From an uncultured Gammaproteobacteria bacterium (lineage in GTDB: Bacteria; Patescibacteriota; Microgenomatia; Levybacterales; UBA12049), in the NCBI GenBank assembly GCA_964521295.1, contig CAZFRF010000001.1, positions 140,675-204,674 of the forward strand: a DNA stretch of 64,000 bases. The letters are read 5' to 3'. A program made the translations under genes and the position numbers. Under the pieces are notes generated by a model that was not told the DNA's origin, ran no database searches, and worked only from the letters and a program-made list of their open reading frames with translations. Shown here piece by piece: positions 20,224-47,990 of this stretch (position 1 is its first letter; each line of letters starts with the position of its first letter).

Positions 20224-20279
20224 CATTTATCTCTTGTTAGTTTCAAATTAATTACATATACTCTGTATTAATCTTTTCG

Positions 20280-20379
20280 GGGATTTGCGAAAGTCAAAAT
20301 CGGTAGTAAACTCTACGAGCGAAAGCACGAGTCTGTGAAACTCAGACAGCGACCGTAAAGTCGGGATGAAAGAAAGATT
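20280..20379 (+). promoter_or_regulatory. candidate structured 5' leader (possible riboswitch-like element) upstream of the EamA transporter
   Basis: About 100 nt, G+C-richer, with two GNRA-loop hairpins (gcGAAAgc twice), hairpin gtctg-tgaaact-cagac and hairpin cgac-cgtaaa-gtcg immediately before the SD/ATG. Class unidentified. Confidence 0.2.
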
Positions 20380-21288
20380 ATGAAAAAAATACTTGGTCTT
20401 GGACCATTATTTATTGTTATTGCTGCGAGTCTTTGGGCTTTAGATGGCGTATTAAGAATTTCTCTCTATTCTCTTCCCCCAGCTACTATTGTATTTTATG
20501 AACATCTTTTTGGTTTTGTAATTTTGAGTTTTATTTTCTTTAAATGGATTAAGGATTTAAGAAAAATGACTCGAAAAGAATGGATTGGTATAGTAATAGT
20601 CTCACTTTTCTCTGGAGCTTTAGGTACAATTTTTTATACTCTAGCTTTGCAAAAAGTTAATTTCATTTCTTATAGCGTAGTAGTTCTGTTGCAACAGCAA
20701 CTACAACCTATTTGGGCAATACTTGCAGCGTCACTTCTATTAAAAGAAAAAATATCTAAAAAGTTTCTTTTTTGGACTGTAATAGCTTTAATTTCTGTCT
20801 ATTTTGTTACTTTTAAAGATTTAACTTTTAATTTGCAAACTGGGCAGGGTGTCGCTATTGCCGCTTTGCTTGCTTTAGGTGCTGGATTCATGTGGGGTAG
20901 CTCAACAGCTGTTAGTAAGTTAGTTTTAAAAAAAGTTAGTTTTTTAACTGCAACAGCAGAGAGATTCTTCTTAGCGCCTATTTTTGCTTTGGGATTTGTT
21001 ATTTTGCAAAACCAAACAGCCTCTCTTTTTGCTTTGAATGCAAATCAGATAAATACTCTAGTAATTATAGCTTTGTCTACAGGAATGGTTTCTTTAGTTA
21101 TCTATTATTATGGTTTGAAAAAAACCAGCGCAAGGGTTAGTGCGATCTGCGAAATGGCTTTTCCAGTTACAGCAGTTTTAATAGATTACTTTTATTTTCA
21201 TAAAACGCTCTCCCCTACCCAGATTATAGGAATAATCTTTTTAATCTTTGCTGTCTTTAAGGTTTCGCAGCAAAATAAGAAAGCATAG
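20380..21288 (+). CDS. EamA/DMT-family (drug/metabolite transporter) permease
   Basis: 302 aa with about 10 predicted TM helices in two EamA-like repeats. Confidence 0.7.
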   Translation: MKKILGLGPLFIVIAASLWALDGVLRISLYSLPPATIVFYEHLFGFVILSFIFFKWIKDLRKMTRKEWIGIVIVSLFSGALGTIFYTLALQKVNFISYSVVVLLQQQLQPIWAILAASLLLKEKISKKFLFWTVIALISVYFVTFKDLTFNLQTGQGVAIAALLALGAGFMWGSSTAVSKLVLKKVSFLTATAERFFLAPIFALGFVILQNQTASLFALNANQINTLVIIALSTGMVSLVIYYYGLKKTSARVSAICEMAFPVTAVLIDYFYFHKTLSPTQIIGIIFLIFAVFKVSQQNKKA

Positions 21289-46117: not shown

Positions 46118-47080
46118 TTAAGTTTTCACCACAACTGGACCAGAGAGTGAATCTCCTGCACCGTGAATCTTTAAATTATATCTCGCATTCCATGATCCAC
46201 CTAAACACTCCCACTCAGTTGTGTTTGTATTATATCCAAAGAAAACTCTATATATCATCCACTTAAATTCATCTGATATCCCACTTTCCATAGGTGGGAA
46301 AAAACTCTGGCAATATACTCCACCTGATTCTAAACCGTCTTTTACTGCTTGCTCAATTCTTCCTCTTGAGGATGCGCCCGGTGGCCTTTTACTACCTGGT
46401 CCAGGAACATAGATAAACACATCTCTGGTTTTACTGCCTTGCAACGGTTTAATTACACATGCAGAATCAAAATCTATTTCTTCTGGTGTTGTAACTTTTT
46501 TCCATAATCCTAAGCCTTCTCCATAGCTCTTGTCCCCTTTTTTCTTTAAAGAACTAACGCTACGAGGTTCTAGGAAATGGTAGCCTGTCTCATCTGGTTC
46601 CGCGCGAACAAGGACAAGGTCTTCGGTATTTCCTTCTTCTAACCTATCAATCCATAAATGATCATCTGTTGCTTTTCTTCTGGGATCATCTGAGACAACA
46701 GATTTAAATACGGGCCAGGTAGTTCGGATTAAATCTAGTCTTTTTTGAAAATCTGGATTAAGAGCCCCAGTTAAACCAATACCAGATGGTCTTTCTTCGA
46801 CTTCATATATTCCCAAGGTATCATCTTGAACAGCACAATCTAGTCTGATGATTAAAGATGGAATGTTAAACTCTCTTTGTACAAATGTTTCTTCTTTAGG
46901 AAATATTTGTGTCCATCTATTTATTGCAGCTAAACTATCAGTAATATTTCTATCCGTAAATGGTCTTTCTTGGGGTAATACTTTAATATTCCATCCTCCA
47001 ATCACCATATCCTGAAATCCTAAGTTACTAGGAGCATTAGGCGTAGTTAGTAATGGTGGTTCAAGTTCTTTCATAAACAT
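46118..47080 (-). CDS. ATP-grasp-like protein (320 aa), G+C-rich, translationally coupled to the downstream M20 peptidase
   Basis: ACVIKPLQGSKTRDVFIY resembles the ATP-grasp K-loop (vvKP..GS.G.gV). Its stop lies 1 nt before the M20 start. Assignment is tentative. Confidence 0.35.
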   Translation of the reverse strand: MFMKELEPPLLTTPNAPSNLGFQDMVIGGWNIKVLPQERPFTDRNITDSLAAINRWTQIFPKEETFVQREFNIPSLIIRLDCAVQDDTLGIYEVEERPSGIGLTGALNPDFQKRLDLIRTTWPVFKSVVSDDPRRKATDDHLWIDRLEEGNTEDLVLVRAEPDETGYHFLEPRSVSSLKKKGDKSYGEGLGLWKKVTTPEEIDFDSACVIKPLQGSKTRDVFIYVPGPGSKRPPGASSRGRIEQAVKDGLESGGVYCQSFFPPMESGISDEFKWMIYRVFFGYNTNTTEWECLGGSWNARYNLKIHGAGDSLSGPVVVKT

Positions 47081-47168
47081 AAAAAAACCTCCCCTTTAGG
47101 GAGGTTTATCTCTTTTTAGCTTAAAATATATTAAGCCACAGAAATACCTCCCTTCTTAAGGAAGTGGT
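47081..47168 (-). promoter_or_regulatory. leader/terminator element C, ending 7 nt before the ATP-grasp-like gene start
   Basis: Terminator hairpin cctccc-cttta-gggagg with U-tract, AT palindrome gcttaatatattttaagc, and small hairpin cttc-ttaag-gaag/GGGAGG. The SD equals the 3' arm of the terminator. Confidence 0.55.
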
Positions 47169-47217
47169 ATGTAAACCAATATTGACAATTTGTTAAAATC
47201 ATTTGTTTCATAAACAT
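47131..47217 (-). CDS. candidate leader peptide ORF (28 aa, MFMKQMILTNCQYWFTYHFLKKGGISVA)
   Basis: It starts with the same ATGTTTATGAAA as the ATP-grasp-like gene (a duplicated 5' segment) and is preceded by element D. Its C-terminal codons overlap the small hairpin of element C, and its stop is the first codon of the AT palindrome. Confidence 0.3.
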   Translation of the reverse strand: MFMKQMILTNCQYWFTYHFLKKGGISVA

Positions 47218-47285
47218 AAAAAAACCTCCCATTTGGGAGGTATCAATTTGCCATTTGGCAACACAATTACCTCCCGTTAAGGAAA
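47218..47285 (-). promoter_or_regulatory. leader/terminator element D, upstream of the 28-aa ORF
   Basis: Terminator cctccc-attt-gggagg with U-tract, palindrome ttgccaaatggcaa, and small element cctcccgttaaggaaag. Its spacer is similar to element A. Confidence 0.5.
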
Positions 47286-47330
47286 GTATAGTGCCAAAAT
47301 TTGCATAAATTTATTTTCATCTTAAAGTCC

Positions 47331-47373: not shown

Positions 47374-47402
47374 TTCAGATTTTAGCTAAAATATAGTATA
47401 AT
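47374..47402 (+). promoter_or_regulatory. candidate promoter (TTCAGA-17-TATAAT) for the tRNA-His-like gene
   Basis: TATAAT at 47397-47402, 8 nt before the tRNA-like 5' end; the -35 is weak. Confidence 0.3.
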
Positions 47403-47410
47403 TAACGCAC

Positions 47411-47485
47411 GGTGGATGTAGCTCAGCAGCAGAGCGTCTGGTTGTGGTCCAGAAGGTGGCGGGGGCGGCACCCGTCTTCCACCCA
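47411..47485 (+). tRNA. tRNA-His (GUG)-like gene with non-canonical D- and T-loops (possibly divergent tRNA or pseudogene)
   Basis: G-1 paired to C73, acceptor gtggatg/cttccac (one U-U mismatch), anticodon stem tctgg/ccaga with loop TTGTGGT. The D-loop AGCAGCA lacks G18G19, and the T-loop GGCGGCA replaces TTCRANT. Overall it is similar to bacterial tRNA-His. Confidence 0.4.
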
Positions 47486-47525
47486 TAGGTGTGTAATTAA
47501 TTACACATATTGTTATAATCCACTT

Positions 47526-47990
47526 ATGCCACATATTCACGAGAAGATTGATTTTACTGTTGAAGTATTCGTTGTATATAGAAATACAGTACTTTTAAGA
47601 AAACATGACAAATATAAAGTTTGGCTGAGTGTTGGAGGTCATATAGAGCTTGACGAAGACCCAAATCAAGCAGCTATCAGGGAAGTAAAAGAAGAAGTCG
47701 GTTTGGACGCCGTTCTAGATGATTCCTTGCAGACATTTAAGAAAAATGATGCGGATTATCAAGAGTTAATTCCACCTTATTTTGTTAATAGTCATAGAAT
47801 AAATGATACTCACGAGCATGTAACTTTTACCTATTTTGCGACAGCACAATCAAATAAAATTGAGCAATTAACAGAAGATGAACAAAGCACTGATTGCAAA
47901 TGGTTTACAAAAGAAGAGATAGAACATTTAGATGATATTCGAGAAAGTGTCAAGCATTATGCCCTTAAAGCATTAAGTGTGTTAGCTTAA
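47526..47990 (+). CDS. NUDIX hydrolase
   Basis: Nudix box GGHIELDEDPNQAAIREVKEEVGLD. The start is taken at MPHIHEK because the ORF-track extension covers the tRNA-like gene. TATAAT lies 7 nt upstream of the ATG. Confidence 0.65.
   Translation: MPHIHEKIDFTVEVFVVYRNTVLLRKHDKYKVWLSVGGHIELDEDPNQAAIREVKEEVGLDAVLDDSLQTFKKNDADYQELIPPYFVNSHRINDTHEHVTFTYFATAQSNKIEQLTEDEQSTDCKWFTKEEIEHLDDIRESVKHYALKALSVLA

Follow-up and report, generated by a model that had tools for sequence, protein, structure and literature searches.

The gene at positions 47411-47483 on the forward strand of the window (the whole stretch of DNA that was analysed, 64 kb in length) is best explained, with a probability that we put at about 0.8 from comparison of sequences, as the housekeeping tRNA-His(GUG) of a Levybacteria-type CPR bacterium, in which the usual elbow contacts have been exchanged for a compensated alternative set that became fixed in the ancestor of Levybacteria. 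Cytoplasmic elongator tRNAs are regarded as having G18, U54, U55 and A58 almost without exception, and these nucleotides are the substrates of TrmH, TrmA/TrmFO, TruB and TrmI. Only G19 and C56 remain of the conserved elbow set (G18, G19, U54, U55, C56 and A58) in the gene described here, the other positions being occupied by A18, G54, G55 and G58. A phylum-wide housekeeping tRNA that replaces all four nucleotides would, if this reading is true, constitute a natural and testable case of tertiary covariation at the pairs 18:55 and 54:58.

A preliminary description of the DNA had read the locus as a tRNA-His fold with G-1 opposite C73, a GUG anticodon in a 7-nt loop, 5-bp anticodon and T stems, the D-loop AGCAGCA, the T-loop GGCGGCA and a single U-U mismatch in the acceptor stem (U6-U67), and re-reading of the sequence bears out each of these points (Table 1). 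The features that define membership of the bacterial proteinogenic tRNA-His class are present, namely the cloverleaf, the 7-nt anticodon loop, U33, GUG, a purine at position 37 and an encoded G-1:C73. ARAGORN, which had been proposed as a check, does not miss the gene and calls it as tRNA-His(gtg) at 47412-47484, while the Rfam model RF00005 scores it at 41.3 bits against a gathering score of 29 (E=2.4e-5 over the whole window). Folding by minimum free energy gives the cloverleaf, at -30 kcal/mol, with a z-score of only -1.0 that is by itself unremarkable. CCA is not encoded, C73 being followed by C-A-T. The gene is, as had been remarked, rich in G+C (66%, against about 34% for the window). 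The good -10 box that had been reported upstream is present as a TATAAT hexamer, but its significance is reduced by the finding that such promoter-like sites, which are consensus matches only, are not enriched in this AT-rich stretch (4 in the region against 2.8 expected by chance). A 192-aa open reading frame at 47412-47990, whose GUG start lies inside the tRNA-His, is an artefactual extension of a NUDIX gene, the domain of which begins after the AUG at 47526.

ARAGORN and Rfam agree that this gene is the sole His tRNA of the window, as had been claimed, among 13 tRNAs that are scattered across the 64 kb and do not form a dense array. It has the lowest Rfam score of the 13, the remaining tRNAs lying between 49 and 72 bits. 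The oddity is confined to the tRNA-His, since the 12 remaining tRNAs all have GG D-loops and GTTCRA T-loops. An FMN riboswitch (20269-20381, 76.5 bits) is found directly after tRNA-Leu(gag).

Table 1. Features of the variant tRNA-His gene and its upstream region in the window, and coordinates of GUCAGCA-type tRNA-His genes on other contigs
Feature	Position	Strand	Basis or remark
Promoter-like site TTCAGA-17 nt-TATAAT	47374..47402	+	10/12 consensus matches
-10 hexamer TATAAT	47397-47402	+	Ends 9 nt upstream of G-1
G-1, genome-encoded, bacterial tRNA-His identity nucleotide, opposite C73 (47483)	47411	+	G-1:C73 in 32/32 distinct Levybacteria-type sequences
tRNA-His(GUG) body, positions 1-73	47412..47483	+	ARAGORN, Rfam, minimum-free-energy fold
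Acceptor stem GUGGAUG/CUUCCAC	47412-47418 with 47476-47482	+	One U6-U67 mismatch
U6 of acceptor mismatch	47417	+	U-U at 6:67 in 30/32 distinct relatives
U67, partner of U6	47477	+	Mismatch kept in relatives
U8 A9, then D-stem GCUC/GAGC, G26	After acceptor 5' strand	+	Sequence
D-loop A14 G15 C16 A18 G19 C20 A21	47425..47431	+	Alignment; G18 replaced by A, G19 kept
Anticodon GUG in 7-nt loop U32 U33 G34 U35 G36 G37 U38	47444..47446	+	Sequence, ARAGORN
Anticodon stem UCUGG/CCAGA, 5 bp	Flanks UUGUGGU loop	+	100% paired in relatives
Variable loop AGGUG, with G48	G48 = 47458	+	G15 (47426)/G48 purine-purine at Levitt position 15/48
T-arm, 5-bp stem GCGGG/CCCGU (G49-U65, C50-G64, G51-C63)	47459..47475	+	T-stem 100% paired in relatives
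T-loop G54 G55 C56 G57 G58 C59 A60	47464..47470	+	U54, U55, A58 all replaced by G; C56 kept
GUCAGCA tRNA-His in tRNA clusters	L074 5267-5341, L092 2641-2715, L063 6226-6300		

The nature of the elbow becomes clear when the variant family is aligned with its canonical relatives, which have the D-loop AACGGYA and the T-loop UUCRANN. The differences are G18A, U54G, U55G, A58G and the nucleotides C59 A60, with G19, C56 and R57 unchanged. The earlier statement that the D-loop lacks G18-G19 is thus right in so far as there is no GG dinucleotide, but the alignment of AACGGYA with AACAGYA shows that G19 is kept. The further statement that both partners of the D/T-loop interaction had been lost at once does not hold, because the pair G19:C56 is retained and the pair 18:55 is altered on both of its sides, from G:U to A:G. 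Since G19 and C56 are kept while 18:55 and 54:58 are substituted, the outer pair of the elbow survives and two tertiary pairs have changed on both sides. The combination at positions 15/48 is A/C in 24 relatives, A/A in 4, G/G (the state of the window gene) in 3 and G/C in 1. A Watson-Crick kissing interaction between D-loop GCAGC and T-loop GCGGC was also considered, and was rejected since the complementarity disappears with AACAGUA, the D-loop of most relatives.

The distribution of the variant was determined with two scans that leave the D-loop position in question unconstrained. The genome scan, which took one genome per species and left position 18 free, yielded at least 120 tRNA-His loci; its pattern also matched the canonical D-loops AACGGYA and AGCGGTA, so that roughly 100 canonical tRNA-His genes among its matches could be used as an internal control. 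Among the matches listed, 16 have the D-loop A(A/G)CAG(C/U)A, and all 16 combine it with the T-loop GGC(A/G)GCA; the roughly 100 GG D-loops among the matches listed are in no case combined with GGCRGCA, and have UUC-type T-loops save for three GUCAGCA and one AUCAUCA. The metagenome scan, in which the T-loop GGCRGCA was fixed and the D-loop left free, yielded 61 loci, every one of which, although picked by the T-loop alone, has A at position 18. The two scans and the window together give at least 78 loci of the variant type, comprising 37 distinct sequences of which 32 are Levybacteria-type, and A18 is present in all 78 collected loci that carry this type of T-loop.

The 16 A18 loci of the genome scan are labelled as Levybacteria or Levyibacteriota (6), Patescibacteria (2), "bacterium" (1) and "uncultured Gammaproteobacteria" (7 third-party metagenome-assembled genomes, or MAGs). 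All 6 Levybacteria-labelled matches among those listed carry the A18/GGCRGCA elbow, while Daviesbacteria, Gottesmanbacteria, Adlerbacteria, Kaiserbacteria, Parcubacteria, Moranbacteria and Spechtbacterales are canonical among the matches listed. Levyibacteriota belong to the Microgenomates group of Patescibacteria according to NCBI. The 7 "Gammaproteobacteria" MAGs (L006, L044, L051, L058, L075, L114 and L118) have 37-43% G+C and a Levybacteria-type tRNA-His, and since flanking proteins of 3 of them (L044, L058 and L075) also occur in the window, with amino-acid identities of up to 72%, and all 7 fall in this G+C range, we take them to be of the same lineage as the Levybacteria-labelled MAGs, whose flanking proteins reach 84% identity to those of the window. 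Two assemblies labelled "uncultured Klebsiella" (L026 and L061) and a Chloroflexota MAG (L035) have one and the same tRNA-His sequence. The taxonomic labels of the two Klebsiella assemblies and of the 7 MAGs look unreliable on such comparisons. Judged by the loci collected, the variant tRNA-His is lineage-wide in Levybacteria. The comparison with homologous loci that had been proposed therefore points to a functional lineage variant, the tRNA-His of the relatives carrying the same loops.

The same loci expose a blind spot in annotation. ARAGORN with default settings calls only 4 of the 78 collected variant genes (those of the window, L050, L086 and L148) and misses 74, and relaxed thresholds (-ps80) recover at most 20 of 74 loci with an output that is mostly junk, while the Rfam tRNA model finds every Levybacteria-type locus tested, at 43-51 bits. 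Levybacteria genomes annotated by ARAGORN will therefore appear to be without a tRNA-His.

The action of selection on the gene can be assessed from the alignment of the 32 distinct Levybacteria-type sequences (alignment A1). Standard pairs make up 88% of the pair cells in this alignment, compared with 38-58% when the partners are slid, and none of 500 shuffles reached the observed pairing. Double-sided changes occur at 8 pairs, including all 5 pairs of the anticodon stem, which have undergone double compensatory changes and are still 100% paired. The T-stem is fully paired and G19:C56 is present in 32/32 sequences, the T-loop GGCRGCA varies within the family at R57 only, and the exceptions to the mismatch at 6:67 are U-A or A-U, in L140 and L132. 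The T-stem contains the pairs that contact EF-Tu (49-65, 50-64 and 51-63), and its sequence, GCGGG/CCCGU, recurs unchanged in canonical tRNA-His of Daviesbacteria, Gottesmanbacteria and Verrucomicrobia (L021, L065, L003, L009 and others). By these comparative measures the Levybacteria-type tRNA-His is under structural (purifying) selection. The first of the three interpretations that had been offered, a divergent functional tRNA-His, is the one that fits, since the same loops are found at every Levybacteria-type locus collected, the stem changes are compensatory and the identity elements are conserved.

The genomic context of the gene combines a conserved tRNA neighbourhood with variable flanks. 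The tRNAs are arranged as Leu(UAA)-Pro(UGG)-Gly(UCC)-Arg(UCU)-His, and tRNA-Arg(tct) is present at the same locus in 46 of the 78 collected loci, the tRNA-His often following it immediately. In 22 of 74 loci the variant gene lies on the same strand as a canonical tRNA and at most 150 nt downstream of it (at most 20 nt in 12), which suggests co-transcription with the upstream tRNAs. There is synteny with Levybacteria MAGs over the housekeeping genes that flank the locus, and the flanking proteins have 57-84% amino-acid identity between the MAGs and the window. In two relatives (L050 and L086) the tRNA-His stands directly between homologues of the window genes at 43.1-43.9 kb and those at 51.4-51.9 or 54.1-55.0 kb. 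Compared with these two, the window carries between 45028 and 51201 about 2.4 kb of extra sequence upstream of the tRNA-His (an M20 peptidase and a 320-aa protein without a Pfam match) and extra genes over about 3.9 kb downstream of it (NUDIX, GrpB and a three-gene ABC-transporter-like block), and its flanks are therefore variable. A tandem duplication of about 130 bp is located at 47066-47290, with 35-nt copies at 47066-47100/47203-47237 and 23-nt copies at 47130-47152/47253-47275. The duplicated segment is the 5' end and leader of a minus-strand open reading frame (46118-47080), the second copy heading a short reading frame only, and each copy has hairpins ACCUCCC...GGGAGGU that are predicted to mask the Shine-Dalgarno sequence GGAGG just before AUGUUUAUGAA. 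A LOOT RNA (L155 1540-1662, 95.9 bits) and a Levybacteria-type tRNA-His are about 600 nt apart.

The proposed path from gene to function would be that of an ordinary tRNA-His. Transcription would start at a promoter belonging to the gene itself in this genome, and in many relatives the gene would close a tRNA operon of the type Gly-Arg-His or Arg-His. RNase P would cut so as to retain the encoded G-1, and 3' trimming would be followed by addition of CCA, a step that is proposed because CCA is not encoded. HisRS would charge the tRNA through G-1:C73 and the GUG anticodon, EF-Tu would bind it through the standard T-stem, and the product would decode CAU and CAC, the L-shape having been rebuilt by putative A18-G55 and G54-G58 contacts. 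From the conservation of the variant elbow we infer that it would be acceptable to RNase P, the CCA-adding enzyme and the ribosome, all of which make contact with this part of a tRNA. The modifications Gm18, m5U54, Psi55 and m1A58 are impossible on this tRNA, because the positions concerned are A18, G54, G55 and G58.

The determination of whether the substitutions in the two loops are coupled cannot rely on Levybacteria, in which A18, G54, G55 and G58 occur together as the outcome of one evolutionary event, and independent cases were for this reason sought in viral contigs. A search that prescribed both loops matched 45 IMG/VR contigs, in which many anticodons are represented. When the T-loop is fixed and the D-loop left free, 60 distinct well-folded IMG/VR tRNAs with 16 anticodon types are obtained, and 59 of the 60 have A18-G19. 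The reverse search, which kept the A18 D-arm constant and allowed any T-loop, gave 46 distinct IMG/VR tRNAs with 22 anticodon types, of which 40 have G at position 55, 5 have U and 1 has C. These 40 G55 tRNAs divide into 26 with U54/A58, 13 with G54/G58 and one with C54/A58, so that viruses also have a milder form in which A18 is accompanied by U54 G55 C56 R57 A58. Finally, 188 neighbouring viral tRNAs, which were chosen by neither loop pattern, include 42 with A18/G55, one with A18/U55, 2 with G18/G55 and 115 with G18/U55 (Fisher p=6e-35, uncorrected for phylogeny). These viral counts, none of them corrected for phylogeny, couple the two positions, and 18:55 therefore behaves as a covarying pair that is either G:U or A:G. 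In the Levybacteria gene, 18:55 may be regarded as a compensated tertiary pair, because both of its sides are altered and numerous viral tRNAs exhibit this coupling too. It is from IMG/VR that the label "viral" is taken; when two of the loci were compared with PHROG, the viral signals were weak (an RF-1 domain protein and a thymidylate synthase).

The change at 54:58 is, to judge from its distribution, a second and separable module. The T-loop GUCAGCA, which has G54/G58 and C59 A60, is combined with a normal GG D-loop and an encoded CCA in the tRNA-His of Mycolicibacterium, Micromonospora and Panacagrimonas (Table 1), and the two actinobacterial genes among these have U at -1, so that G-1 is not encoded. 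A tRNA-His of a low-GC MAG (L037 97-171) has the T-loop AUCAUCA with a canonical D-loop, and resembles a swapped A54/U58 with C59 A60. The G54/G58 class in viral tRNAs and Levybacteria is accompanied by unusual 15/48 combinations (A/C, A/A, U/A and G/G). An extra pair Y20:G55 beside G19:C56 was tried as a further element and rejected, position 20 being A or G in 13 of 120 viral A18/G55 tRNAs and mostly Y in canonical tRNAs too; throughout Levybacteria 20:55 is pairable (U-G in 24, C-G in 8). Taken across bacterial and viral tRNAs, the comparisons show that the two loops did not decay independently, and that their substitutions are coupled and conserved.

A phylum-wide tRNA of this kind, built on a substitution rule that recurs in many viral tRNAs, would invite the question of how the elbow is read by RNase P, the CCA-adding enzyme and the ribosome, and it points to a possible route by which tRNAs might escape T-loop-dependent recognition. 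A tentative and rather speculative extension is that A18-G55, with or without G54-G58-C59-A60, may constitute an undescribed elbow design that is widespread in virus- and array-encoded tRNAs, has reached fixation in the sole tRNA-His of an entire CPR phylum, and is perhaps hidden from readers of the elbow or T-loop. Full-text literature searches found no published A18/G55 or G54/G58 elbow in bacterial or phage tRNAs. Since Gm18, m5U54, Psi55 and m1A58 cannot be made, such tRNAs might be invisible to nucleases, toxins or quality control. If this were true, the Levybacteria gene would reflect either the same evasion pressure or capture from a phage.

Capture of this kind, in which a functional tRNA-His from a phage or mobile tRNA array replaced the native gene in the Levybacteria ancestor, is an unlikely origin. 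The elbow would then be a viral design, serving for example to escape nucleases or enzymes that act on the elbow or T-loop, and this is compatible with a housekeeping role. What lends the idea substance is that the A18/GGCRGCA elbow stands in the 60 distinct IMG/VR tRNAs with their 16 anticodons, that a viral tRNA-His (L269, IMG/VR) has the same T-arm, GCGGG-GGCAGCA-CCCGU, and that the elbow is also found in four high-GC (54-70%) metagenome contigs with dense tRNA arrays (L124, L165, L138 and L174). However, no Levybacteria-type tRNA-His was found among the matching IMG/VR viral contigs, and the locus is syntenic and not array-like. The gene body is, moreover, ordinary, its 5' acceptor strand GGUGGAUG being common to Chloroflexota and its T-stem to Daviesbacteria and Gottesmanbacteria. 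The difference from such genes amounts to about six loop substitutions and A67U, for which vertical descent suffices, and a phage origin is thus conceivable but not needed, given that the gene body resembles an ordinary bacterial tRNA-His. A BLAST search of the window tRNA and one viral variant against 50,697 deposited phage genomes returned canonical phage tRNAs only and no cultured example. The four array contigs each have a GUG tRNA-like gene with the A18/GGCRGCA elbow and a 4-nt variable loop, some without G-1:C73, and ARAGORN calls none of these genes. Two of the contigs (L124 and L165) consist almost wholly of tRNAs with non-canonical T-loops, such as GGUUGAAGU and GGUGCGACU, and in a third a HEARO RNA (L138 204-416, 119.8 bits) adjoins the tRNA array.

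It is also improbable that the gene is a specialised non-proteogenic or regulatory tRNA-His which stands beside an unseen canonical copy. CPR genomes are small and usually have one gene per anticodon, and no second tRNA-His turned up in the 64 kb of the window, where ARAGORN and Rfam were applied, nor in related loci amounting to about 0.5 Mb (in pieces of 1-15 kb). The T-stem is identical to the one in canonical tRNA-His from other phyla, U33 and G37 are in place within an anticodon loop of the usual 7 nt, and the retention of G19:C56 likewise argues against specialisation. The idea draws on a bacterial precedent with the same kind of loop losses, the tRNA-Gly(UCC) NP1-3 of S. aureus (PMC13443448).

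A decaying pseudogene or the remnant of an old integration site, which the preliminary description had also suggested, is very improbable indeed, for although the gene has the lowest Rfam score of the window tRNAs (41 against 49-72 bits), most of its relatives are missed by ARAGORN, and the window has variable genes and a duplicated 130-bp segment next to it, such a reading is made untenable by the compensatory changes that keep each of the stems paired across 32 distinct sequences, by invariant identity elements and loops that are conserved and not drifting, by a conserved place beside tRNA-Arg(UCU), and by the finding of no second copy of the tRNA 3' half in the window with up to 3 mismatches allowed. 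The last of the earlier suggestions, a tRNA-like regulatory RNA, received no specific support.

The comparison with known systems places the housekeeping tRNA-His proposed here close to the canonical bacterial form (RF00005) in most respects. It shares with that form the cloverleaf, GUG, G-1:C73 with its 8-bp acceptor helix, G19 and C56, the T-stem GCGGG/CCCGU that is found in many phyla and the D-stem GCUC/GAGC, and it differs in having A18, G54, G55, G58 and a fixed C59 A60, a non-canonical 15/48 combination (G/G here) and a conserved U6-U67 mismatch.

Among bacterial chromosomal tRNAs, the S. aureus tRNA-Gly(UCC) NP1-NP3 come nearest to the variant in having lost a D-loop G and U55 together (PMC13443448). 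In these tRNAs G18 and G19 are both absent, the determinants for EF-Tu are weak and the anticodon loop is shortened; they coexist with proteogenic isoacceptors, and they serve peptidoglycan and cell-wall synthesis, their weak EF-Tu determinants keeping them off the ribosome (PMC13443448). The variant tRNA-His, by contrast, has lost G18 and U55 with G19 still present, and it keeps G19:C56, a standard tRNA-His T-stem and a 7-nt anticodon loop. The eukaryotic initiator tRNA-Met and tRNA-Ala(AGC) offer a parallel for the second module, because they have a purine-purine combination at 54/58 in place of U54:A58 together with an unusual 15/48, but the combination is A54-A58 and not G-G, 15/48 is R15/A48, and G18 and Psi55 are kept (PMC7566577). 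Westhof et al. (2020) report that such 54/58 pairs are unobserved in bacterial or archaeal tRNAs (PMC7566577).

The non-canonical cases treated in reviews are tRNA-Pyl, tRNA-Sec and mitochondrial tRNAs (PMC7609411). tRNA-Pyl and the mammalian mitochondrial type II tRNAs are like the variant in lacking the canonical G18 G19/T-Psi-C and in using alternative D/T contacts, but they do so with shortened D-loops, altered stems or connectors and loss of G19:C56 (PMC7609411), whereas in the variant tRNA-His the loop sizes, the stems and G19:C56 are all standard. Further counterparts are the A18/G55 tRNAs of viruses and arrays, which arrive at the same loop solutions, AACAGYA or AGCAGYA with GGCRGCA. 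These, however, have many anticodons, are located on IMG/VR contigs or in dense arrays and often encode CCA, whereas the gene of the window is a single chromosomal tRNA of a CPR bacterium, in which the other tRNAs of the window are canonical.
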